Origin: Candidatus Sericytochromatia bacterium
GTDB taxonomy: Bacteria > Cyanobacteriota > Sericytochromatia > S15B-MN24 > JAQBPE01
Assembly (NCBI GenBank): GCA_036675505.1
Contig: JAKFEW010000041.1
Coordinates: forward strand, 8,580 to 72,579
Length of the DNA: 64,000 bases
Reading direction: 5' to 3'
The stretch's first letter is position 1. Each line of letters opens with the position of its first letter. The position numbers and the translations under genes are program-made. The notes below the pieces were generated by a model. The model ran no database searches, was not told the origin of the DNA, and saw only the letters and a program-made list of their open reading frames with translations. Of this stretch, positions 5,592 to 33,480 are shown in pieces.

Positions 5592-6123
5592 GGCGGAGAG
5601 CCTGCCGGCGAGGCGCCACCGGACGCCGAGATGGCGAACGGGAGCGCGACCATCAGCTGGACCGCCACGCCGGCCACGATCGCCCCGAGCGCATGCTTGA
5701 GCAACGGTGCGCTGCCGCCGCCGTGGCCCGTGTGGATCTCCCAGCGCCGGCGTTGCCGGTGCGCGATCGCGAGGCCCACCCCGACCGCGAGGAGCATATT
5801 GGCGGTCCGGAGGCCGCGCCGGTGGTCCACGCTGCCCGCGACATAGAGCCCCGGGATGCCGTAGGCGTGGGCGTAGCCAGCCAACGCGGCCAGCGCGACG
5901 CCGGCCACGAACGCGAAGGTCAACAGCGGCGCGTACGCCTGGGGCCGGCCGAGGCGCTTGAAGTTCTCGGCGAGCAGGATGCCCATCGGGATGACGCCGA
6001 AGAATGCGCCGACCAACACGAGGTAGTTCGGGTTCCAGGGGCGATCGAAGCCCACCGCGTCGTCGTGCGCGGTCAGCGAGGGCGTCAAGATGTCATCGTC
6101 GTCGACCTGACGATTCGCGTCCA
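5588..6123 (-). CDS. Small integral membrane protein of unknown function.
   Basis: An internal start MDANRQV sits at 6123. Multiple hydrophobic segments are present. There is a 4-nt overlap with the downstream TPR gene. Confidence 0.5.
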
Positions 6124-6149
6124 TGCGGCCTCCTTGGCGGGGGCCGGCA

Positions 6150-8534
6150 TTATACCGTGTGTTCGCGCCCGCCGTCGTCCCGGACCAGCTCCGACCCGCC
6201 GTCGGGCCGCGCCGGCAACGAAACGGTGGCCTCGGTCCCGCCGCCGGCGGGGCAGCTGAGCGAGACTCGGCCGCCGTGCAGCTCGGCGATGCCCTTGACC
6301 AGCGCCAGCCCGAGACCCAGCCCGCCAGGGCGGAGCGCGTCCGACGTCCGGAGCTGGTTGAAGGCCTCCCAGACCTGGTCCAGCTGCCGCGGCTCGATGC
6401 CGGGGCCATTGTCCCAGACCGTGAACACGACGTTTCCGGCCACCGAGCCCACCTTCAAGCCGACGGTCCCGCCGGCCGGCGTGAAGCGCCGCGCGTTGTC
6501 GACCAGCTCCGCGAGCATCTGGGCGAGGCGGTGCGGGTCGCCCTCGAAGCTCGGCAAGCCGGGTGCGATCTCGCCGACCCACCGCACCCGAGCGGCGGCC
6601 AGCTCTGGCCCGATCAGCCGGTGGGTGGCTTCGACGAGCTCGACGGGGTCCACCTCGCTGCGGTAGAGCGGCATGGCACCGCTGAGCAGGGCGCCGAGGT
6701 CGATGATGCGATTCATGTGGGTGGCGAGCCGGTGCGCGCCTTCGAGCAGCCCCTTCACGATGGCTTCATCGGGATACGTGTCTTCCAGCATCTCCGCGTA
6801 GCCTACGATCAGCGACACGGGCGTCTTCATCTCGTGGGAGATCGTCGAGAGCAGATAGTCCTTCACCCGGGCCAGCTCGCGCGCCTGCTCAGTTTCGATG
6901 GTCCGCCGCGCGGCCTCGGCCAACATGCGCTGGCGTTCGCTGATGTCGCGGACGCTGACGATGATGAACGGCCCACCGGGCGTTTCGACCGGGCTGAGGC
7001 GCACTTCGGCCGGGAACTCCCCGCCGTCTTGTCTGACGCCATGGACCTCGCGGTCTTTGGCCATTGTCCAGGCGCCGGTGCCGAGGGAATGGCCATCGCG
7101 CCTGGTCCGGTGAGCCTCCCGAATCGCTTCGGGGACGAGCTTCTCGACCGACAGGCCGATCATTGTGGCTGGCGCATACCCGTAGAGCTCCGCTGCGAAG
7201 GCGTTGGCGTAGCTCACCCGGCCGCCGGCGTCGATCAGCAACAACGCATCGGGGGACGCCTCGAGCACCGAGCGGACGCGCGCCTCGCTGCGCCGATGTG
7301 CGTCCTCCAGGCGCCGATGTTCGGTCATGTCGAAGAGCGTCGATCGGCTCATCATGAACGCACCCGCCTCGTCGCGCAGCGCGGTCGCGGTCACCAACAC
7401 CGGGAAGGCGCTCCCGTCCTTGCGGCGCAGGTCGAGCTGCAGATCCTTGACCCAACCGCGGGCGACGAAACCGGGGAAGGTGGCCCGGAACCGCTCTCGT
7501 CCGTCCTCGTGGAGGAGCGTCTCGTCCCAGCGTTCGCCGACGATTTCCTCGCGCGAGTAGCCGAGCCAGGCGAGCTCCGTGTCGTTGATCCGGACGACGC
7601 GGCCCTCGCGGTCCAGCGAGTGGTAGCCGCACGGCGCGTTCTCGTACAGGTCGATGAGCTCGTCCTCGGCGACGGCGAACCGCGCCGTGCTCCACCACAG
7701 GAAGCCGAAGCCGCCGAGGGCCAGGGTCAGCACCATCAGCTCGAGGCCGACGATGCGCGGGATCAGGCCCGTGTGTTCGGCCTCGAGCCGCAGCCAGCCC
7801 AGTACGATCGGCCCCAGTAAGGTTGGCGCCACGAGGCGGCGCATCGTCTGCCCGGCCGTGCCCCGCGAGGTCAGCAACGCCGGCAACGAGGCCCCGGGGG
7901 TGCCCGCGATCAGCGCCACAGCCATGGACAGCAGGGTGGCGGCGGTGAGGAGCGCCATCGGCGCGCTGTGCATCCAGCTGTAGAGGGCCGATACGTCGTA
8001 CACGTAGCCCAGCGCCGTCAGGTAAATCGGGACCACGGTGGCGAGGGCCAGGCCCTGGATCGCCTGGCCGACGGCCCGGCGCTCCAGGGCCCAGGGCAGC
8101 CCCAGGAGCCCGACGCCCAGCAGCGTCACGCAGATCGACGTGTCTATCGCGGGCCGCCCCGGCCAGGCCTGCCAGGCTTCCGCGACGGCGCGAGGAAACA
8201 GCAGGTGGTCGATACCCAGATCGCGGGCGAGGAGGTGCTCCGCGAGCGTCACGACGCCGATCGTGGCCCCAGCGAGCGCCGCGGCCCGGCCGGCCGCCAA
8301 TCGCCAACCTACGGCCCGGCCGCCGGCGAGCGCCGCGAGGGAGGCGCTCAGGCACAGGAGCGCGAGCGCCGTGAGCGGCATCATCGGGATGTAGCCTGGA
8401 ATGATGGAGCGGAGCGCAGGAAGGTCGGCTGCCCAGCTGACGGTCACCGCGCAGGCGACGAGGGCGACGGCCCCGGCCAGCCCGTACGCCAGCCGGATTC
8501 CGGGCGTTTCGCTCGTCGGGGACGCAGCTCGCAT
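6150..8534 (-). CDS. Membrane-bound sensor histidine kinase (N-terminal multi-TM sensor region, two PAS domains, HisKA, HATPase_c).
   Basis: There are about eight N-terminal hydrophobic helices. PAS-like segments are present (YENAPCGYHSLDREGRVVRINDTELAWLGY and others). The H-box is ISHEMKTPV. The HATPase region includes the G boxes DNGPGIEP and GGLGLGLALV. Confidence 0.8.
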   Translation of the reverse strand: MRAASPTSETPGIRLAYGLAGAVALVACAVTVSWAADLPALRSIIPGYIPMMPLTALALLCLSASLAALAGGRAVGWRLAAGRAAALAGATIGVVTLAEHLLARDLGIDHLLFPRAVAEAWQAWPGRPAIDTSICVTLLGVGLLGLPWALERRAVGQAIQGLALATVVPIYLTALGYVYDVSALYSWMHSAPMALLTAATLLSMAVALIAGTPGASLPALLTSRGTAGQTMRRLVAPTLLGPIVLGWLRLEAEHTGLIPRIVGLELMVLTLALGGFGFLWWSTARFAVAEDELIDLYENAPCGYHSLDREGRVVRINDTELAWLGYSREEIVGERWDETLLHEDGRERFRATFPGFVARGWVKDLQLDLRRKDGSAFPVLVTATALRDEAGAFMMSRSTLFDMTEHRRLEDAHRRSEARVRSVLEASPDALLLIDAGGRVSYANAFAAELYGYAPATMIGLSVEKLVPEAIREAHRTRRDGHSLGTGAWTMAKDREVHGVRQDGGEFPAEVRLSPVETPGGPFIIVSVRDISERQRMLAEAARRTIETEQARELARVKDYLLSTISHEMKTPVSLIVGYAEMLEDTYPDEAIVKGLLEGAHRLATHMNRIIDLGALLSGAMPLYRSEVDPVELVEATHRLIGPELAAARVRWVGEIAPGLPSFEGDPHRLAQMLAELVDNARRFTPAGGTVGLKVGSVAGNVVFTVWDNGPGIEPRQLDQVWEAFNQLRTSDALRPGGLGLGLALVKGIAELHGGRVSLSCPAGGGTEATVSLPARPDGGSELVRDDGGREHTV

Positions 8535-21930: not shown

Positions 21931-22020
21931 GAGCGCTGAGGGATTCGAACCCTCGGAGGCTTTTGAGACCTCATTCGTTTTCAAGTCGGTCCAGGCGCCG
22001 TTTCGGGGAGTTCCGCCGAG
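21931..22020 (-). pseudogene. Degenerate tRNA-Ser-like remnant (copy A). It has an intact T-arm and anticodon-loop-like segments but no foldable acceptor or D arm.
   Basis: The reverse complement contains GAGGGTTCGAATCCCTC (T-arm), CTTGAAAAC (Ser-UGA anticodon-loop signature) and AAGCCTCCG (variable arm). It aligns at about 70% to the intact tRNA-Ser at 33283-33367. No cloverleaf of normal length can be made. Confidence 0.5.
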
Positions 22021-22108
22021 GCGGTCCGGGGCCGCTCTTCCTCGCCGCAGTTCGATCCTACCACGGCGGCGACTTCGTCCACGGTCCGCGTAGGCGGGGG
22101 CGCGGCGG

Positions 22109-22137
22109 GGAGGTGGCGCCCAAAATCGGCGCCCAAC
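22109..22137. repeat. Conserved direct-repeat motif, copy A: ggaggtggcgcccaaaatcggcgcccaac, containing two GGCGCCC half-sites.
   Basis: The same motif occurs at 24623-24651 and 33453-33480. Each copy lies about 80 nt upstream, in the minus-strand sense, of a tRNA-Ser or tRNA-Ser remnant. Confidence 0.6.
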
Positions 22138-22250: not shown

Positions 22251-24002
22251 ATGGCAGAGAATCCCTTGCTTCGATTGCTTTCCGCGGGCCTCGCCTCGAT
22301 CCGTGCGGTTGGCGCGGGCAAAGCAAGTGCGCCATCCAATCCCGGCATTTCGCAGGTGCAGTTGGAGGCTGTCGAGAAGTACCGTAAGGCTGCTGAGCGA
22401 GGCGACGCGGCAGCCCAGTATATGCTGGGGGATGCGCACGCCAAGGGCCAGGGAGTGGCACGGGACCACGCTAAAGCGGTGGAGTGGTGGCGCAAGGCTG
22501 CCGAACAGGGCAACGCGGATGCGCAGTGGAGTCTCGGGGTTGCGTACGACAACGGCTGGGAGGAAGTGGCGCAGGACCACGCCAAGGCTGTGGCGCTCTA
22601 CCGCATGGCCGCCGAGCAGGGCAACGTGAGGGCGCAGTGGAGCCTCGGCTATATGTACCGTGAGGGCCGTGGCGTGGCGCAGGACCACGCTAGGGCGGTG
22701 GAGTGGTGGCGCAAGGCTGCTGACCAGGGCGACGCAGCGGCGCAGTACGGCCTTGGCGTCGCGTACGTCAACGGCCAGGGCGTAGCAATGGACGAGATCG
22801 AGGCGGTGGAGTGGTGGCGCAAGGCCGCCGAACAGGGCAACGCGAGCGCGCAGCGCGACCTCGGGTCTGCGTACGCCTACGGTAGGGGAGTGCCAGTGAA
22901 CCGCAAAAAAGCGATGTTGCTGTGGTTCGATGCTGCTGAAGGGGGCGACGAGGCGGCCCAGTGTATACTTGGGGTTGCGTTCGATACTGGCGTAGGAGCG
23001 CCATTGGACCACTCCAAGGCCGTGATGTTTTATCGCATGGCCGCCGAACGTGGCAACGCGGAGGCACAGTACAACCTAGGGTTTTCGTACCATAGCGGCC
23101 GTGGTGCGGTGCAGGACGACGCAATGGCGGTGGAGTGGTGGCGAAGGGCCGCCGAACAGGGCGACGCGAAGGCGAGAGAGGCTTTACAGCATCCTCGCCT
23201 TGTCAACCAGGCGAGGCACCGCGAGACCAACGCCGGTGAGCGAGAGAAAGCCATGGTCAATGTCGGCACCTCTCAATATCCAAGTTACTCTGGCGCCGAA
23301 CTCCACAACATGAAGCGAGCCCTCGATCAGATGCTTGCTGAAAGGTTGCGAGCTGGCCTTTTGGAGGAAGCCAAAGAGATTCATACCAGGCGAGGTGAAC
23401 TCATTGCTTGGATAGAGTCGAAGAACCCCGCCTACAAGCATGCGCGTGAAACGTATATACTTCAGACTGAAGTCATTGACCGGATGATGATTGGCCAATG
23501 CTTTGAAGGGCCGTTCCAGGATCCGCCAATGTATGACCGCTTTGGTGCTCGGGATTCCAGCCCGTTCTTGGATGCAATAAGGGTAATGAAGGGTGAGTTG
23601 TACATTCGCACTGGATCACCATTCGGCTCCGAGCTTGCGGAGTTCATGACGACCAAGGACTTCAGTGTTCTGGAGGATGTTCGGCGAGGTCTAGCAAGTG
23701 AAATCAGGGAAATGGAACAGACGTCGTTGTCGCTTGGACGCGAGGCTGACGGACTTGCTTACCTGAAAATGCAACTTGAAGATTTTGAGACAATCCTAAC
23801 TGAGTCTTGGCTGTTTGCATATGAAATGCGAAATTGGCTGGTTCCCGAGGGGGACTCTGAATCTAACCCGGGCCATGGCCCCATTGACTTTAACGAATGG
23901 CAGGTGTGGAAGCGAATGGAATTCGAGCGGGCAAGTAGTATCTGGACCAACCACCAAGATGGTCCGCCGGCGGCGCTGCGAGTAAATGAAGCAGCAAGCT
24001 GA
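22251..24002 (+). CDS. Sel1-repeat protein (about eight Sel1/TPR-like repeats) with a C-terminal domain of unknown function about 290 aa long.
   Basis: There are repeated units of the form AAEQGNAxAQxxLGxAYxxGxGVxxDxxKAVEWWRKA. The gene is low GC. The C-terminal half has no recognisable motif. Confidence 0.7.
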   Translation: MAENPLLRLLSAGLASIRAVGAGKASAPSNPGISQVQLEAVEKYRKAAERGDAAAQYMLGDAHAKGQGVARDHAKAVEWWRKAAEQGNADAQWSLGVAYDNGWEEVAQDHAKAVALYRMAAEQGNVRAQWSLGYMYREGRGVAQDHARAVEWWRKAADQGDAAAQYGLGVAYVNGQGVAMDEIEAVEWWRKAAEQGNASAQRDLGSAYAYGRGVPVNRKKAMLLWFDAAEGGDEAAQCILGVAFDTGVGAPLDHSKAVMFYRMAAERGNAEAQYNLGFSYHSGRGAVQDDAMAVEWWRRAAEQGDAKAREALQHPRLVNQARHRETNAGEREKAMVNVGTSQYPSYSGAELHNMKRALDQMLAERLRAGLLEEAKEIHTRRGELIAWIESKNPAYKHARETYILQTEVIDRMMIGQCFEGPFQDPPMYDRFGARDSSPFLDAIRVMKGELYIRTGSPFGSELAEFMTTKDFSVLEDVRRGLASEIREMEQTSLSLGREADGLAYLKMQLEDFETILTESWLFAYEMRNWLVPEGDSESNPGHGPIDFNEWQVWKRMEFERASSIWTNHQDGPPAALRVNEAAS

Positions 24003-24021: not shown

Positions 24022-24492
24022 TCATCCGATGAAGCCGCATTTGAGGCAACCTTCTCCACCGAAATTCTCGTTGTATCGTAGCCCCCCACCCCAACCGCAT
24101 TTCGGACAGAACTTCCCAGGCTCGACGTCGTCCCACTGCCACGCACCAACATACTCCGGGATGCCGTCGCGATCAATGCTAGTTACTTCAAATACGTCCG
24201 GCTCAACTGATATCCAGGCATTTCCGTAGTGACAACGCAACTCCTCGTAGACTTCCCCGGCAGAAAAGTTGAACCATTCAGAATGGGCGCGCTTCGCGCG
24301 GTACTTTTGGTGCAACCTCGCTTCTAGGTCACGGTCATCGCTGGATGTGAGGTAGCCCATCAACTTTAGCTGCTGCGGGCTGCCGGTTTGAAGCTCTCTC
24401 ACTCTTCGAGGAACATCGCCACTGTACCCGATCTTTACGCGGATGCAGTTGTAGTCAGGGTTCTCGTTATCTGCAATGAAGTAAACGGCCAA
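24022..24492 (-). CDS. T5orf172 (GIY-YIG-like, MUG113) domain protein with a C-terminal zinc ribbon.
   Basis: CIRVKIGYSGDVPRRVRELQTGSPQQLKLMGYL...LEARLHQKYRAKRAHSEWFNF matches the T5orf172 consensus. The C-terminus has CPKCG...CLKCG. The gene is low GC. Confidence 0.65.
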   Translation of the reverse strand: MAVYFIADNENPDYNCIRVKIGYSGDVPRRVRELQTGSPQQLKLMGYLTSSDDRDLEARLHQKYRAKRAHSEWFNFSAGEVYEELRCHYGNAWISVEPDVFEVTSIDRDGIPEYVGAWQWDDVEPGKFCPKCGWGGGLRYNENFGGEGCLKCGFIG

Positions 24493-24495
24493 GAG

Positions 24496-24651
24496 TTGAG
24501 ACCTCGTTGTTCAGTCGCCCCAGGCGCCGGTTCGAGAAGTTCCGGCGAGATCGACTCGGGCCACGCTGGGTAGCCCCTGCTCGAGACTTCGTTCACGGTG
24601 GGCGGAGGCGGCTCCGCCGTGTGGAGGTGGCACCCAATTTGGCACCCAGAC
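24496..24651 (-). pseudogene. Truncated tRNA-Ser-region remnant (copy B). It lacks the T-arm but keeps the 5' half and the upstream direct-repeat motif (24623-24651).
   Basis: ttgagacctcgttgttcagtcgccccaggcgccggttcgagaagttccggcgag aligns to copy A (21965-22020). The repeat here is ggaggtggcacccaatttggcacccagac: both half-sites changed to GGCACCC. Confidence 0.45.
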
Positions 24652-24706: not shown

Positions 24707-25516
24707 TCAGTGACTACCCTGGAGCAAGGGGAGGCGCAGTTCGCGTTCAGGCCCACGTTTAAGGTACTCACTCACTAGACGAATCCAGCATCGCAGTTCG
24801 GGACCCGGCACACGGACGAAGCCGTAGTGCTTTCGCTGGACCTGCTCCAACTCGTCATCAGGAATGCCAGGACCGACTTCGGCGATGTACTGAGCCAACC
24901 GGATCCCGATTCGGAAACCTAGGTCCTGGGTCATTACCAGAGAGCGCACTACGCAGAGGCTCGGAAACGGATTTTCGACACGATTTATCTCAACCACCTG
25001 GTCGAGAATAGCATTGAAGAACTGGTCATCGCCGGAATAGACTGCTCGCTCTTGGCCGGGCTCTGGCCATAGCTCAACGGCAACGGCCTCCACGTTCAGG
25101 AAGGTCGTGCGTGGGAGATCGGAAAAGCTTGGTTCGCTTACGCCGTCTTCTACGATGGCCCAAGTCCGCTCTAGAGGCCAAACATCAAAGAGCCACTCTG
25201 ACTTTCGTAACTGGAGCCCTCCGAACCGGGTTTCGCGGGTGATCAAGTCCTCGAAAAGATCGCGCAGGCTTTCCAAAGGCTGGCCCTGGGTAACGATGTC
25301 CACATCACGTGGACGGCCCACACTCCGGTGAACGAGTCGCGAAATGAGCAGAGAACGTAATGTGCCTCCAAAGAGGACCGCCTGCCAGTTGTGCTGGCGA
25401 ATGGACCCCGTAACATCCGACAAAGCTTCCCAGACGCCTTCCTGACGACGGCAGAACGAATCTACCTCCGTCCTTAGCATCATCTTAAGATCGTCGATTG
25501 TTGTAGCATTAGCCAT
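24707..25516 (-). CDS. Hypothetical protein with a nucleotidyltransferase (Pol-beta-like) fold signature. Translationally coupled to the upstream dGTPase.
   Basis: There is an 8-nt overlap with the dGTPase stop. The motif LFGGTLRS...RPRDVDIV (G[GS]...DxD) is present, with a later acidic residue at FDVW. The gene is low GC. The functional call is tentative. Confidence 0.45.
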   Translation of the reverse strand: MANATTIDDLKMMLRTEVDSFCRRQEGVWEALSDVTGSIRQHNWQAVLFGGTLRSLLISRLVHRSVGRPRDVDIVTQGQPLESLRDLFEDLITRETRFGGLQLRKSEWLFDVWPLERTWAIVEDGVSEPSFSDLPRTTFLNVEAVAVELWPEPGQERAVYSGDDQFFNAILDQVVEINRVENPFPSLCVVRSLVMTQDLGFRIGIRLAQYIAEVGPGIPDDELEQVQRKHYGFVRVPGPELRCWIRLVSEYLKRGPERELRLPLLQGSH

Positions 25517-26960
25517 TGGTCAACTCCGAGTGAAGACGCTTGGCAAACGAATCGGTCATGCCACAAACATAGTCTGTCACCAATTGAAGGCGATGATAAT
25601 CAACAGGCAAGTCTTTTTCCTGCACAGCAGAGTGTGCAAACACTTTGCGATAGGCATCAGAAAGCAGTGACTGCGATTTGCCAGCAAAGGACTTCGGCTT
25701 CGGGGCTTTGCCGGGTTCAAGCACGCTAGCACCCTCCCAAAAGAGGGTGAGCAGATCACTTATGACTTTCCGGCCCTGCAGTTCTAGCTTTAGATTGGAG
25801 TGTGTGCAGTAAATCTTGGTGCGTCCAATGAACTTCAATAGTTCCACAAATGGGGCTTGCTCACCTGTTCCCACCAACTCGCCCTCACCTTTGCCGTTGA
25901 ATCGCCCCTCCATGATTGCGTCGTAGTTCTGTTCGAACTCCCTGGCTGCCGCCTCTACTAGAACACCGATTGCAGCAGTGCGGAATGCGGCCGCATGGAC
26001 ATCGTCGGGCAAATCTGCTGGATTCTCGCTTGGCTTGAGAACACGTGCTTTACCTTCCAATACCCTTTCAACGGTATCTGATGCCGCTTTCAGTTTGGCG
26101 TCTTTGGTCGCAGGATCCTTATCGTCCCATATTGCTGCGAGTTCCAACAATGCCGCATCTTTCAAGAGGAACTGCAATTCGGGCCAAGACAAAATACGTT
26201 TCTTTACTCCGTCCTCGATGTCCGCAACAGAGTAGACAATATCGTCTGCAGCTTCAATAAGAAACGCAATGGGGTTACGCGCGTCGCCTGTCCCGGTCTT
26301 TTGCCGGATTCCTTCGATGAGGCTTTTTTCCGAAGTAAAGTAGCCTGGCTTCGATTTTGCGTGGTCAACGACTGTGCCCACCTCCATCGACGACGCCGTG
26401 TATTTGCATAGTGCAGACAACGTGCCAAAGGTTAGGTTCAACCCGTTATAGTCGGCCAGTACATGAAGCTTCGCCACGATTCGCATTGTCTGGGCGTTGC
26501 CCTCGAATCGCAAGAAGTCATCAACCAATTCTTGCCTGCCTCCAAGGAGGGCCAACAGTTCGCCCTTATTGAAGAACTTTCTGAACCATTCCTGGATGGC
26601 ATCTTCTCCAGAATGACCAAACGGAGGATTTCCAAGGTCATGAATCAACCCACAAGTCCCAGCAATCGCTTCGATCTGACGATCTTGCCCGTCTTTGATG
26701 TGCCCTTTCGGCAAGAGAAAGTCTTTGCTTACCTTCCTCGCAAGCCCACGGGCAACTGATGATACCTCCATGGAGTGGGTCAAACGCGTACGCACAGAGT
26801 CATGAGGCTCCAACGGAAAGACCTGGGCCTTGTCCTGAAGCCTCTTTACGGGTGACGAAAACACGACGCGATCGTAGTCACGTTCGAACTCTTCGCGGTG
26901 ATCACCACCGCTGGAAGACTTGCGAGGGCGTTCGGAGTTCAGAAGCGTATCCCAGTTCAC
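25509..26960 (-). CDS. dGTPase-family (Dgt, HD-domain) deoxynucleoside triphosphate triphosphohydrolase. Putative nucleotide-depletion defence effector.
   Basis: RLTHSMEVSSVARGLA and HDLGNPPFGHSGE are the HD metal-binding motifs. The C-terminus has YVCGMTDSFA. The protein is 483 aa. The gene is low GC, lies in an accessory island, and has an AT-rich promoter region at 26961-27023. Confidence 0.8.
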   Translation of the reverse strand: MNWDTLLNSERPRKSSSGGDHREEFERDYDRVVFSSPVKRLQDKAQVFPLEPHDSVRTRLTHSMEVSSVARGLARKVSKDFLLPKGHIKDGQDRQIEAIAGTCGLIHDLGNPPFGHSGEDAIQEWFRKFFNKGELLALLGGRQELVDDFLRFEGNAQTMRIVAKLHVLADYNGLNLTFGTLSALCKYTASSMEVGTVVDHAKSKPGYFTSEKSLIEGIRQKTGTGDARNPIAFLIEAADDIVYSVADIEDGVKKRILSWPELQFLLKDAALLELAAIWDDKDPATKDAKLKAASDTVERVLEGKARVLKPSENPADLPDDVHAAAFRTAAIGVLVEAAAREFEQNYDAIMEGRFNGKGEGELVGTGEQAPFVELLKFIGRTKIYCTHSNLKLELQGRKVISDLLTLFWEGASVLEPGKAPKPKSFAGKSQSLLSDAYRKVFAHSAVQEKDLPVDYHRLQLVTDYVCGMTDSFAKRLHSELTNG

Positions 26961-27023
26961 TCGCGGTTCTCCTCATTAAATGACGGTCTCAAAATGTAGA
27001 TACCGGTTAAACGTGACGAGATA

Positions 27024-28142
27024 CTATTTTTCAAAATCGAATTTCCCAGGCAAAAGCTGTAAATTGGGGCGAATACCTGAAATTGGAGGAGTCGAACTCT
27101 GACGTCCTCCATCAACGGCCGACATCAAAACGCCAAACGTCAAGGCCTCAAGTTCAGGAAGCGGAATACACAACTCCCGCGCTATCTCAACCTTTCGGCG
27201 ACCCTCTTCAAGCAACATTCCAAACACATTCCTGAAAATCTCTGACGTCTCGCGCGAGATCGAATCTGGTTCGTGAGTCCGAAAGCCGCGCTGTGAGACC
27301 TCAATCGCCATCGTTCGATACTGCCACTCAGTGAGTAACTCCAGATGGTGTAGTCGATAAGCAAGCGCGGCCACAGAAACGCCCCATCCGCGCTTAAGCC
27401 GAATTAGCCCATCAACAGACGGGGTACGGCGAATGGCTGCAAGAACAGATTCCGCAGGCATCAAGAAGGCAGAGGCGAACGCGTTTGCGTCGCGCTCCGG
27501 ATCCCGATCAGCGGGCATCCCAAAACGGTGCATCACCAAATGACCCAACTCGTGGGCTGCATCGAGCCTACTCCGCTCGCTCGACTTCTTTGTATTCAGA
27601 AACACGTAAGGCCGAAAGTCGCGCCAAAGTGAAAAAGCATCGACCTCTGCACAGTCCTCCGCAAGGGAGAAGACTATTACACCCTTTTCCTCAAGAAGAT
27701 GAACCATGCTTGGAATCGGTCCACTTCCAAGATTCCAATAGGCCCTAAGGACGACGGCAGCTTCTTCTGGAGAGTGATTGCTAAGATCGGGAAGATCCGC
27801 ATGGTCAAGTGAAAACTCTTGCTCAATCCAATCGGCCACGACAATACCCAATGCGCCAGCACCAAGCGCTGCGTCCCGCTGGCTCGCCGTCATTCGTTTA
27901 AGCGACCTAAAGCTAGCGCTCTCCGGCTTAGGTTCAAACAAAGTCGGTCCAGCGAAGAACTCAATCGGAAAGCAGAGTGAACGAGAAAGCTTGTTGAGAG
28001 TCTCACCGCAAGGGGGGCGACTACCGTCCTCGAACATCTGAAGAGCCCGTGTTGAGACCCCAACGTTCTCAGCCAACTTTACCTTGCTCAAGCCCCTACG
28101 CTTGCGCGCCAAGGAAAGCCTAGTTGGGTTGAACTCCGCCAT
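27024..28142 (-). CDS. Fused XRE-family HTH plus ImmA/IrrE-type zinc metallopeptidase (HEXXH) regulator.
   Basis: The start MAEFNPTRLSLARKRRGLSKVKLAENVGVSTRALQMFEDG (HTH_XRE) was verified at 28142. The peptidase motif is HELGHLVMH. There is a 23-nt overlap with the upstream gene. Confidence 0.8.
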   Translation of the reverse strand: MAEFNPTRLSLARKRRGLSKVKLAENVGVSTRALQMFEDGSRPPCGETLNKLSRSLCFPIEFFAGPTLFEPKPESASFRSLKRMTASQRDAALGAGALGIVVADWIEQEFSLDHADLPDLSNHSPEEAAVVLRAYWNLGSGPIPSMVHLLEEKGVIVFSLAEDCAEVDAFSLWRDFRPYVFLNTKKSSERSRLDAAHELGHLVMHRFGMPADRDPERDANAFASAFLMPAESVLAAIRRTPSVDGLIRLKRGWGVSVAALAYRLHHLELLTEWQYRTMAIEVSQRGFRTHEPDSISRETSEIFRNVFGMLLEEGRRKVEIARELCIPLPELEALTFGVLMSAVDGGRQSSTPPISGIRPNLQLLPGKFDFEK

Positions 28143-28845
28143 CCCTGGCCTCCATTTTGCGACGAACAACCTTGACCTTGGCCGAAGGCACCGAATCGAA
28201 GGACGGCACATCGTTGATCTCATCGAAGACGGGATCAAGGAAAATACGATCCGTCCAGCCAGTTACCTGACCACCGACGATTCCATTCGGCAGCGACAAC
28301 TCGCAATTCGCACCGGTTTCCGTCGGATTGATCAAAAGCCAATACGTTGCGCGCCTCTGAGGAGCGTCGCGCCGCTCGATGTCAAGTCCTAGCGCAAGCT
28401 GGTACTCACGAGCGTAGTTACTCTCGATGGCGCGCTCAGACGCAGACCCTCGGGGGTTCTTGATCTTCGCAACGCCATCTCGTTGCCCGGTGGCCGCATT
28501 TCCTTGCGCCGCAGTGATTGCGATATCCATCCCCCGGTGGTAAACGGTCTGGAGGCCGCAGTCGCGCATTGCCACCCAACCCGCCTCTTCAAGCAGGTCA
28601 CGAAGTTTGCGAATCGGCTTGCCCCAGAGAAGTGTTCCCTTCATGGAGTCTACTTCGTTCGGACCACACTCACGGTAAAACCCGAGTGCGTACAAAATTG
28701 CCTGGTGCAAGATTTCCTGTCGCAGTCCAAGGGTTCCCAGCTTCGCACTGGTCTCGTCGTCGCGCCAACCTAGCTCGTCCAAAAGCAAGTCCTCCTGAAC
28801 AGTTCGCCAGACCTTGACTGGCAGCTTCCGGATTTTATACCTCAT
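28120..28845 (-). CDS. Hypothetical protein (241 aa). It is the first gene of the operon that contains HTH-ImmA.
   Basis: Low-GC ORF that overlaps the downstream regulator gene. No recognisable motif. Confidence 0.55.
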   Translation of the reverse strand: MRYKIRKLPVKVWRTVQEDLLLDELGWRDDETSAKLGTLGLRQEILHQAILYALGFYRECGPNEVDSMKGTLLWGKPIRKLRDLLEEAGWVAMRDCGLQTVYHRGMDIAITAAQGNAATGQRDGVAKIKNPRGSASERAIESNYAREYQLALGLDIERRDAPQRRATYWLLINPTETGANCELSLPNGIVGGQVTGWTDRIFLDPVFDEINDVPSFDSVPSAKVKVVRRKMEARDGGVQPN

Positions 28846-29391: not shown

Positions 29392-30009
29392 CTACTCACC
29401 GCACGTATGCAGGAGTCGGTAGTCCTGCGCCGTCTGCCACGCCGTCGCGAACGAACACGAGGCCTTCCGTGCGACTTCTGCAATCGACAGGTCGGGCGCG
29501 CTCTCGAGCGCGGTCCACACGTCGGCGCGAAACGACGGGCCCATAAGCACACGGTTTCGGTAGCCCGCGTGGCGTCGAACCAGAACTTCAGGCGAGAGCA
29601 CGTCCTCGTGGCGATCTCGGAGCGTGCCCATGGGCACGCGTAGCAATGACCCCCTGAAGCGCCCATCTTCGCCCCGCCACTTGACCTGGAACTCGGTGCC
29701 CGTCGGCAATAGATCAATCGGCGAGCCCTTGTAAGCGCTTGAGAGGCGGGCGAGTCGACGATCTCCTTTGAGCCACGAGGCGATGGCCGCCCAGTAGGCG
29801 CGGACCCTTTCGGACGGATACACACTCACGAGGCGCACGAGCCGATCGGCGTTGACGTGGTTGTGATGCACGCCGAGCCAAACGGTCAGGACGCCGAGCA
29901 CGCGGAAGTCACCATCGTCCATGCCGAGGGCAGAGGCGTGCAGGAGCGTACCCTCGATGTCCGCGTCGGCCTCGGCTTCAACGGCGAAGTTCATCCCGAT
30001 GCCCGCCAT
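29392..30009 (-). CDS. Hypothetical protein downstream of the MNT-type nucleotidyltransferase. Possible toxin-like partner. The start is uncertain (30009 or 30072).
   Basis: The ORF has protein-like composition and no canonical HEPN Rx4-6H motif. It abuts the stop of the MNT gene. Confidence 0.4.
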   Translation of the reverse strand: MAGIGMNFAVEAEADADIEGTLLHASALGMDDGDFRVLGVLTVWLGVHHNHVNADRLVRLVSVYPSERVRAYWAAIASWLKGDRRLARLSSAYKGSPIDLLPTGTEFQVKWRGEDGRFRGSLLRVPMGTLRDRHEDVLSPEVLVRRHAGYRNRVLMGPSFRADVWTALESAPDLSIAEVARKASCSFATAWQTAQDYRLLHTCGE

Positions 30010-30061
30010 GCGCGCCGCTAGCTCGTTGGGCGCAGGCGCAGGCCTTGGCGAGGTATCACGC

Positions 30062-30352
30062 CTAAACGGCATAACCGAGCCTCCGCGCGAGGCCAGCGAC
30101 CGTCGCCCCAACATGGGCGGGCCACAGCTCATTCAGGTCGATACCGGCCTCGCGCTGCGCCTTTGAGAACTCGCGAGCAGCCGCAGCGATGGCTGGTGGA
30201 AGTTCGGGCACGAGGATGTCGAAGTCGCGCGTCGGACGCTCGATGACGCCCATGAGACCTAGCGCCGAGCCGCCGATGACGACGCCCTCGAACCGCAGGC
30301 CGAGCCCGAGCATGTGGCGATCAAATGCTTCGATGGTCGGGCGGGGGAGCAT
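30062..30352 (-). CDS. Minimal nucleotidyltransferase (MNT-type, Pol-beta superfamily).
   Basis: VIGGSALGLMGVIERPTRDFDILV matches the hG[GS]x9-13DxD motif. The protein is 96 aa, typical of MNT antitoxin-like proteins. Confidence 0.6.
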   Translation of the reverse strand: MLPRPTIEAFDRHMLGLGLRFEGVVIGGSALGLMGVIERPTRDFDILVPELPPAIAAAAREFSKAQREAGIDLNELWPAHVGATVAGLARRLGYAV

Positions 30353-31715: not shown

Positions 31716-32049
31716 CGGTAGAGGCCTCCCCCCTCCCGCCCCCCGCGAAGCCGCTGACCGGCTACCCCCTCTGTCCCGCTCGCGGAAGTTCGGGCACGAG
31801 GACGTCGACTTCGCGCGTCGGCTGCTCGATGATGCCCATGAGCCCCAACGCTCCCGGACTTACACCACCTTACGGGACATGACCTCGGCGCGCTTACGTA
31901 GGTCCACTTCTTCTGCGCACAATTGAGGTCGCCGGCCTTGCAGAGGTCAACGACGTCATAGACCTCAACGACGGAGTCAGCGAACCTCGCACGAGATCTG
32001 CCTCGCTTGCCTCCGAGCAGGGTACATCTCTCGCTAGGAGGCGGCCCTC

Positions 32050-33274: not shown

Positions 33275-33282
33275 CAGTTAAG

Positions 33283-33367
33283 CGGGGAGTGTCGGATTCG
33301 AACCGACGGAGGCTTGCACCTCGGCTGTTTTCAAGACAGCTGCGATAGACCACTCCGCCAACTCCCC
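33283..33367 (-). tRNA. tRNA-Ser (anticodon UGA), 85 nt with a long variable arm.
   Basis: The reverse complement is GGGGAGTTGGCGGAGTGGTCTATCGCAGCTGTCTTGAAAACAGCCGAGGTGCAAGCCTCCGTCGGTTCGAATCCGACACTCCCCG. The acceptor pairs 7/7. The anticodon loop CTTGAAA gives anticodon TGA. The T-loop is TTCGAAT. The variable arm is 17 nt. Confidence 0.85.
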
Positions 33368-33452: not shown

Positions 33453-33480
33453 CGGAGGTGGCGCCCAAAGTGGCGCCCGA
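33453..33480. repeat. Conserved direct-repeat motif, copy C (ggaggtggcgcccaaagtggcgcccgat), upstream of the intact tRNA-Ser.
   Basis: This is the third copy of the GGAGGTGGCRCCC-N-GGCRCCC motif. It lies 86 nt upstream of the tRNA 5' end. Confidence 0.6.

Follow-up and report, generated by a model that had tools for sequence, protein, structure and literature searches.

A dGTPase and nucleotidyltransferase gene pair in a Sericytochromatia genome is probably a divergent member of the Clover anti-phage system

We analyzed a stretch of 64,000 nucleotides from a Candidatus Sericytochromatia bacterium (GenBank assembly GCA_036675505.1, contig JAKFEW010000041.1, positions 8,580 to 72,579 of the forward strand; hereafter the window), in which two overlapping genes encode a 483-residue protein of the Dgt/HD family of deoxynucleoside triphosphate (dNTP) triphosphohydrolases, a predicted deoxyguanosine triphosphate hydrolase (dGTPase), and a 269-residue protein resembling nucleotidyltransferases (NTases). 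This pair is very probably a divergent member of the known anti-phage system Clover and not an undescribed kind of defense, since full-length homology links its two proteins to Salmonella CloA and CloB. We refer to the two genes as cloA-like and cloB-like. Clover has been described for Salmonella enterica SA20044414 and E. coli H5 (Yamaguchi et al., bioRxiv 10.1101/2025.07.09.663793; PMC12265719), and PMC13434031 places the Clover paper in Nature in 2026. CloA is an octameric HD-domain dGTPase (the 'four-leaf clover') that is inactive alone and activated by deoxythymidine triphosphate (dTTP), the level of which rises in infection by T5-like phages (PMC12265719). CloB is a Pol-beta NTase that makes 5'-triphosphothymidyl-3'5'-thymidine (p3diT, pppdTpdT); on binding to an arginine-lined pocket in the interface of the CloA dimer, this dinucleotide shifts the dTTP threshold upward (PMC12265719). 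A D71A/D73A mutation in CloB renders the operon toxic, the toxic partner being the dGTPase and not the NTase (PMC12265719). Two discrepancies in the published record concern these proteins: the catalytic mutant of CloB is named D61A/D63A in one figure legend of PMC12265719, whereas the text and another legend have D71A/D73A, and the CloA structures are coded 8P9S-8P9V in the preprint and 9p8s-9p8v in the PDB, apparently by transposition. An original prediction, made from the letters of the window alone, had proposed a dGTPase with an obligate NTase partner and had held this combination to be undescribed; its functional reading of the pair was essentially right, but its claim of novelty has been overtaken by the Clover papers.

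Both genes lie on the same strand, the dGTPase gene first and the NTase gene second, with overlapping open reading frames (ORFs), as in Clover (Table 1), and the arrangement of the pair and its surroundings is found likewise in an independent public assembly. The 483-residue protein carries the motifs RLTHSMEV (residues 59-66), HDLGNPPFGH (107-116) and MTDSFA (468-473), and the 269-residue protein contains LFGGTLRS (48-55) and RPRDVDIV (68-75). The GTG start of the cloA-like ORF, which ends with a TAA stop codon, is backed by an N-terminal alignment with the CloA of Salmonella (SeCloA; MNWDTLLNSER / MHWNDLLNSNR). The GGAG motif that precedes the cloB-like ATG doubles as coding sequence for the conserved ...SEL... 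end of CloA. Neither ORF of the pair is a chance ORF, because the 269-residue protein has 672 homologues (E <= 1e-3) and the dGTPase matches solved structures (E 1e-75). As had been predicted, the end of the dGTPase ORF and the start of the 269-residue ORF overlap by 8 nucleotides, the sequence of which reads ATGGCTAA. Since an ATGGNTRA junction with an 8-nucleotide overlap recurs across phyla, we infer that the two genes are translationally coupled. A promoter scan of the locus returned no sigma-70-like sites, and a terminator scan returned terminator-like sites at chance level only.

The 483-residue protein matches the Pfam families HD and HD_assoc, the PADLOC dGTPase model (2e-71) and the NCBIfam model TIGR01353 of the general Dgt subfamily (317 bits), and together with the motifs named above these matches bear out the Dgt/HD signature that had been assigned to it. 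Among the NCBIfam dGTPase models it remains under every equivalog cut-off. It reaches 292.8 bits with NF003429 for the E. coli-type Dgt (cut-off 405; E. coli Dgt itself 895), 365.7 bits with the housekeeping Dgt equivalog NF002205 (cut-off 439) and 187.5 bits with NF041026 for stand-alone anti-phage dGTPases (cut-off 400). SeCloA yields an almost identical pattern of scores, from which that of E. coli Dgt differs. In a phmmer search of the PDB, the top relative of the window dGTPase was Salmonella CloA (the four 8-chain entries 9p8s-9p8v; E 1e-75, 259 bits, residues 1-480), compared to 168 bits for E. coli Dgt and 87 bits for the Shewanella stand-alone anti-phage dGTPase 9p8w. The SeCloA sequence was rebuilt from the PDB alignment and recovered as P0121, and its locus was fetched to obtain Salmonella CloB. 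BLASTP of the window dGTPase with SeCloA gave 34 % identity (E 6e-89); the margin in percent identity is small, with 36 % to SeCloA versus 32 % to E. coli Dgt. We then aligned the window protein and 34 dGTPases whose genes are linked to homologues of the 269-residue protein (the window clade) with SeCloA, 20 SeCloA-like proteins and E. coli Dgt. As in Clover, the HD motif, the metal ligands and the HE dyad are present in the window dGTPase. By this alignment the metal ligands are H62, H107, D108 and D239 (H69, H117, D118 and D242 in SeCloA) and the catalytic dyad is H116 and E119 (H126 and E129 in SeCloA), and these residues are kept in 33-34 of the 34 clade members. All substrate contacts of SeCloA are likewise kept in the window dGTPase except Q127.

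For the 269-residue protein, no family in Pfam, PADLOC or NCBIfam was found above threshold and a PDB sequence search returned noise only; its fold was thus derived from AlphaFold and Foldseek. None of its 672 homologues carries a Pfam domain, those with a named source belong mostly to the Planctomycetota, and no homologue was encoded by the phage genomes searched. Across an alignment of 102 homologues G50, G51, R54, D71, D73 and D111 never vary and S55 hardly does, all of them except R54 being assigned to the active site, and many further positions are invariant as well. The Pol-beta NTase motif [D/E]h[D/E]...h[D/E]h is therefore present in the form of D71-V-D73 and F-D111-V, which are invariant in all 102 sequences. 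An AlphaFold2 model built on this alignment (predicted local distance difference test, pLDDT, 94.4; predicted template modeling score, pTM, 0.90) places D71/D73 and D111 on adjacent strands of the NTase fold. The top 31 Foldseek matches of the model in the PDB are class II CCA-adding or A-adding enzymes and E. coli poly(A) polymerase I (E 1e-8 to 7e-5), with template modeling (TM) scores normalized to the query of 0.45-0.59 and identities of 13-18 %. Of these 340-520-residue targets, just the head and neck are matched by the 269-residue protein, and the TM scores normalized to the target are 0.29-0.44. CD-NTases and the Hailong protein HalB appeared only at E ~1e-2 (HalB TM ~0.2). The model and its structural matches confirm the predicted Pol-beta-like fold of the partner, which we assign as the head and neck of a class-II (CCA/poly-A-polymerase-like) Pol-beta nucleotidyltransferase.

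The relation of this protein to CloB is visible at the level of single residues. BLASTP aligned it with Salmonella CloB at E 8e-9, with D71 and D73 falling on the published catalytic D71 and D73, so that the D-x-D...D motif stands at matching positions in both proteins. The FGGxxR...D71-x-D73 stretch aligns residue for residue with Salmonella CloB, as do (K/R)FGG...D-(I/V)-W...(E/R)TWA. A profile of the 269-residue family scored 95.8 % in hhalign against the Salmonella CloB (SeCloB) sequence and 99.6 % (E 1.6e-24, 253 columns) against a profile of the 43-sequence SeCloB family.

Linkage of the two genes was analyzed with one genome per species, which yielded 52 loci with a relative of the 269-residue protein. 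These come from at least eight phyla and include Planctomycetota, Verrucomicrobiota, Spirochaetia, Acidobacteriota, Myxococcota, Armatimonadota, Nitrospirales, Rhodothermales and Pseudomonadota. A dGTPase homologue lies directly upstream on the same strand at 48 of the 52 loci, and the four loci without this adjacency comprise a contig edge (L048), a decayed locus with NTase fragments only (L053), two genes 2.6 kb apart (L044) and an apparent orphan (L034). The ATGGNTRA junction with its 8-nucleotide overlap is present across phyla in at least 30 of the 48 loci with an upstream dGTPase ORF; at several further loci the junction is kept and an earlier ORF start was called. The obligate two-gene module that had been proposed is hence borne out by co-occurrence. 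When flanking ORFs were clustered over the 52 loci, no third gene was conserved with the pair, and only closely related Spirochaetia metagenome-assembled genomes share neighbors. The inspected neighborhoods are mutually unrelated: that of Fimbriiglobus ruber holds a DDE transposase, a Phycisphaerales genome has a serine recombinase close by, and other loci have metabolic genes. On plasmids of Bacillus cereus and Phaeobacter piscinae, relatives of the pair likewise have the dGTPase gene first and the gene of a 'hypothetical protein' second, and the Bacillus plasmid copy adjoins Hachiman and a DUF262-HNH gene. The NTase-linked dGTPases score 230-455 bits among themselves, each higher than against E. 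coli Dgt (164-230 bits). A pairwise matrix separates three subgroups (proteobacterial, Bacillus and the window clade), and the congruent similarity matrices of CloA and CloB indicate co-evolution of the two proteins. The pair is a self-contained, mobile two-gene cassette and not a housekeeping dgt with a neighbor. None of the three findings that were to speak against the original prediction was made: the modeled partner has an NTase fold, the pair is conserved, and the dGTPase is not the syntenic housekeeping gene.

Some of these loci are degraded. In Spirochaetia metagenome-assembled genomes the Clover-like pair is syntenic at L020, L023, L024, L028 and L053 and has decayed to different degrees: cloA is truncated at L024, cloB is split at L028, and L053 retains fragments of cloB only. 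At L052 (Gemmata algarum) just a 36-residue end of cloA and a truncated cloB are left.

We next compared the ligand pockets of CloA in the alignment described above. Of the residues that line the p3diT pocket of SeCloA, R29, R34, R38, R314, N181, D37 and F41 are kept in the window protein as R22, R27, R31, R327, N175, D30 and F34. In the dTTP pocket R47, D61, K256, S418 and T449 are kept as R40, D54, K253, S434 and T469. The pocket residues R29 and R34 (with R38 and R314), D37, F41, D61 and K256 are retained in 32-34 of the 34 cloB-linked relatives. E. coli Dgt has none of R29, R34, D37, F41, D61 and K256, which the window protein shares with SeCloA; for R29, R34, D37 and F41 this makes the conservation informative. 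With regard to octamer assembly, the stacking residue H263 is conserved in neither clade. Judged from the alignment, the arginine-rich pocket for the inhibitor and the larger part of that for dTTP may be retained, and the regulatory architecture looks conserved in the window CloA.

By analogy with the published system, the locus is probably a two-gene Clover-type anti-phage module that resides in a horizontally acquired low-GC (guanine-plus-cytosine) defense block, with a mechanism that can be proposed at the level of the family. In uninfected cells the CloB-like enzyme would continuously make a 5'-triphosphorylated dinucleotide, which is p3diT in the characterized systems. This dinucleotide would fill the arginine pocket at the dimer interface of the CloA-like protein and hold the dGTPase off. 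Upon infection, a phage-driven rise in dTTP would lead to its binding in the adjacent allosteric pocket, which would displace the inhibitor and complete the active site, and the active CloA-like dGTPase would then drain dGTP and block phage DNA synthesis. The presumed enzymatic activities, the identity of both ligands and the protection against phages are in this proposal taken from published Clover, for which p3diT/dTTP control is known in the Salmonella, E. coli and Xanthomonas systems only (PMC12265719). Among the roles that had been envisaged for the partner, the provision of immunity fits the published restraint of CloA by CloB, whereas modification of the released nucleoside or triphosphate and a function as sensor or activator do not.

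Several observations weigh against a simple transfer of the Salmonella chemistry to the window pair. The window CloA shares 34-36 % of its residues with the Clover reference, and the window CloB about 20-23 %. In the p3diT pocket N75, Q311 and T25 of SeCloA are replaced by S68, A324 and G18, so that the side chains reading the thymine base other than D37 (N75 and Q311) are not kept. Position 311, invariant as Q in the 20 SeCloA-like proteins, is S in 19, Q in seven, T in four and A in two of the 34 clade members, and position 75 is S in 20, T in nine and A in five. In the dTTP pocket Y452, Q172, N420 and A444 are changed to F472, H166, A436 and Y464. Two of these changes, Q172 to H166 and N420 to A436, alter gamma-phosphate contacts in the window copy; Q172 is kept in all 34 clade relatives and N420 in 32, the former exchange being confined to the window copy and the latter common to its closest relatives only. 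At the position of Y452, an alanine mutant of SeCloA loses dTTP activation (PMC12265719). Furthermore, R38, R47, R314, T449 and S418 also occur in E. coli Dgt and do not discriminate between the families. It is conceivable that the window clade (Planctomycetota, Verrucomicrobiota, Acidobacteriota, Spirochaetota, Myxococcota and others) has the architecture of Clover with an inhibitor other than p3diT. Alternatively or in addition, CloA might be triggered by a dNTP other than dTTP or by another cue, or at a different threshold, with the product of the partner still gating the dGTPase. Besides the replaced thymine readers, the clade-wide differences at N175, Q127 and A444 of SeCloA, the additional Q172H and N420A of the window copy and the low identity to SeCloB would be in line with this possibility. 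We nevertheless consider it rather unlikely, as the phosphate-binding arginines, D37 (which contacts thymine T2) and F41 are conserved, as are D61 and T449, the Watson-Crick readers of dTTP. N75 is variable even among SeCloA-like proteins, and the distantly related CloB of Xanthomonas makes p3diT, too (PMC12265719).

Membership of the window dGTPase in the general Dgt subfamily TIGR01353 would be compatible with a host housekeeping dgt that serves dNTP-pool homeostasis, the 269-residue protein being an unrelated or accessory neighbor. The scores below all housekeeping equivalog cut-offs (293 versus 405 bits for NF003429), the location in a low-GC block beside a RosmerTA system, the homologous pairs in unrelated contexts, next to a transposase or recombinase and on plasmids, and the linkage to the partner at 48 of 52 loci leave hardly any room for it, and we excluded a housekeeping dgt on composition, context and model scores. 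Equally improbable is an RNA- or tRNA-directed NTase, either a repair enzyme of the CCA/poly(A) type or a toxin like MenT or AbiEii, with the HD protein as its antagonist. Its nearest solved folds are indeed the CCA-/A-adding enzymes and poly(A) polymerase I, it gave a weak match to an NCBIfam CCA-transferase model (E 0.0019), and pairings of NTase and HD domains occur in bacterial CCA-adding enzymes. With its head and neck only, however, the protein is devoid of the tRNA-holding body and tail, its match to the PolyA_pol head of PF01743 lies far under threshold (E 0.28, 12 bits, cut-off 23), and its homologue CloB makes a dinucleotide that is bound by CloA, in a system in which the dGTPase is the toxic partner (PMC12265719). 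A slim chance might be given to the pair being the subordinate part of a four-gene system with the neighboring RmrT and RmrA, in which RmrA could for example control the dGTPase. RosmerTA (27024..28845, -) lies directly upstream of the pair on the same strand, rmrT and rmrA overlap by 23 nucleotides, and the gap of 63 nucleotides between rmrA and cloA is free of a terminator-like site. An RmrA homologue within 8 kb of the pair was yet found at only one of the 52 loci, where it is 7 kb away, a conserved third gene is missing, and RosmerTA (as represented in the PADLOC models) and Clover (PMC12265719) are both self-sufficient two-gene systems. RosmerTA is a neighbor and not part of the dGTPase/NTase module.

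As a probable Clover member, the window pair differs from the reference system in its phylogenetic placement and its gene junction. The pair falls into a clade of its own, with members in Planctomycetota, Verrucomicrobiota, Acidobacteriota, Spirochaetota, Armatimonadota, Nitrospirota and Myxococcota; for Clover the preprint names proteobacteria, Bacillus, Clostridia and Myxococcia, with a set of about 650 CloB homologues (PMC12265719). The 8-nucleotide ATGGNTRA overlap conserved in the window clade contrasts with the 47-nucleotide overlap in the Salmonella gene calls (reference locus L054: cloA 6001-7416 and, overlapping it, the 277-residue gene cloB at 7370-8203). Clover would hence extend well past the taxa named in the describing preprint, as a mobile cassette in environmental phyla in which almost no defense system has been tested, and the conserved overlap junction would be a feature carried by this cassette. 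For ligand specificity the divergent clade amounts to a natural experiment, in which the arginine pocket and the readers of the dTTP base are kept and the thymine readers are not; a comparison with the Salmonella system could reveal how far signal and activation threshold can drift.

Stand-alone anti-phage dGTPases were reportedly described by Tal et al. in 2022. Such proteins, for example SpdGTPase of Shewanella putrefaciens (9p8w), share the HD fold and the catalytic residues with the window dGTPase, and depletion of dGTP would be the expected outcome in both cases. Unlike the window dGTPase with its obligate NTase partner and its score of only 87 bits with 9p8w, they consist of one gene and show constitutive activity in vitro (PMC12265719). 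E. coli Dgt (4x9e/6oiy; NF003429) belongs to the same family, TIGR01353, and has identical catalytic residues at 32 % identity to the window protein, but it lacks the alpha8-alpha9 loop residues common to SeCloA and the window protein as well as a partner gene, and is chromosomal and syntenic in enterobacteria. On the side of the partner, class II CCA-/A-adding enzymes and poly(A) polymerase I have the GG...R(S/D) helix-turn and the D-x-D strand in common with the 269-residue protein; the product of these enzymes is an RNA 3' extension, whereas that of the CloB homologue would be a dinucleotide signal. Inhibitory nucleotide signals are known in defense from Hailong (HalB, oligo-dA) and Panoptes/MISS (2'3'-c-di-AMP) (PMC12265719). 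Their logic is that of Clover, in that the signal of a constitutively active NTase of the Pol-beta superfamily restrains an effector; effectors and signals are different from those expected for the window pair, and structural similarity is remote.

Like Clover, the window pair lies in a defense island. Its position beside RosmerTA in a low-GC block, together with the plasmid homologues adjoining Hachiman, would indirectly support a role in protection against phages. The GC content around the pair is 51-57 % over a block from roughly 22.2 to 30 kb, compared to ~70 % in the rest of the window, in agreement with the low GC content that had been pointed out for the 269-residue protein. The block holds the RosmerTA genes upstream of the pair and a gene for a T5orf172/MUG113 protein downstream of it (Table 1). 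RmrA, RmrT and T5orf172 showed no linkage to the pair elsewhere among the 52 loci. The T5orf172/MUG113 protein has a weak match to the PADLOC model PDC-S57, and from its sequence the gene may be a further defense gene of the island.

Table 1. Features of the gene pair and its surroundings in the window
Feature	Position	Strand	Remarks
cloA-like gene, 483-residue Dgt/HD-family dNTP triphosphohydrolase, predicted dGTPase effector	25509..26960	-	GTG start
cloB-like gene, 269-residue class-II-type Pol-beta nucleotidyltransferase (modeled), head and neck domains only	24707..25516	-	ATG start
Overlap junction ATGGCTAA	25509..25516	-	cloB-like ATG 8 nucleotides inside 3' end of cloA-like ORF
Shine-Dalgarno-like GAGGAG	26969..26974	-	8 nucleotides 5' of cloA-like GTG
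GGAG	25524..25527	-	7 nucleotides 5' of cloB-like ATG
rmrA (RosmerTA), HTH_3 and Peptidase_M78	27024..28142	-	PADLOC RmrA 7e-143
rmrT (RosmerTA)	28120..28845	-	PADLOC RmrT 3.5e-35
T5orf172/MUG113 (GIY-YIG-like) gene, 156 residues, C-terminal CxxC...CxxC	24022..24492	-	215 nucleotides downstream of cloB-like gene
tRNA-Ser(tga), intact	33282..33367
Partial tRNA-Ser(tga) copy (3' half, T arm to anticodon loop)	21941..21995	orientation as intact gene	about 85-91 % identical

The remnant of the tRNA-Ser gene and the intact gene are 11.3 kb apart and flank the low-GC block. A search for the boundaries of the island found no integrase at the locus. The block bracketed by tRNA-Ser looks like an old tRNA-targeted island, although the lack of an integrase and the host-like GC content of the stretch of 30.3-33.2 kb weigh against this reading. 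An intergenic repeat of ~130 nucleotides ending with GGAGGTGGCGCCCAAA(n)GGCGCC is present at 22000..22135, after the tRNA remnant, and at 24515..24645, in the gap between the cloB-like and the T5orf172 gene, and its end motif also occurs at 33454..33469, about 90 nucleotides upstream of the tRNA-Ser gene. The repeat had no Rfam match and its folding was no better than that of shuffled sequence.

At 29392..30352 (-) a 96-residue ORF with a weak N-terminal match to DUF6036/AbiEii-type NTases (E 1.4e-4) overlaps a 226-residue ORF, whose family is unassigned. A 74-nucleotide copy of the core of the 96-residue ORF (85 % identical, with stop codons inside) is found 1.6 kb away at 31778..31851, separated from it by genes for an HD-domain lipoprotein and an ABM monooxygenase. 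At the opposite side, 22251..24002 (+) encodes a 583-residue protein, the ~250-residue C-terminal part of which gave no family match. Seven Sel1 repeats fill its first ~320 residues, and the gene is situated at an edge of the low-GC block and runs convergently to the defense genes.

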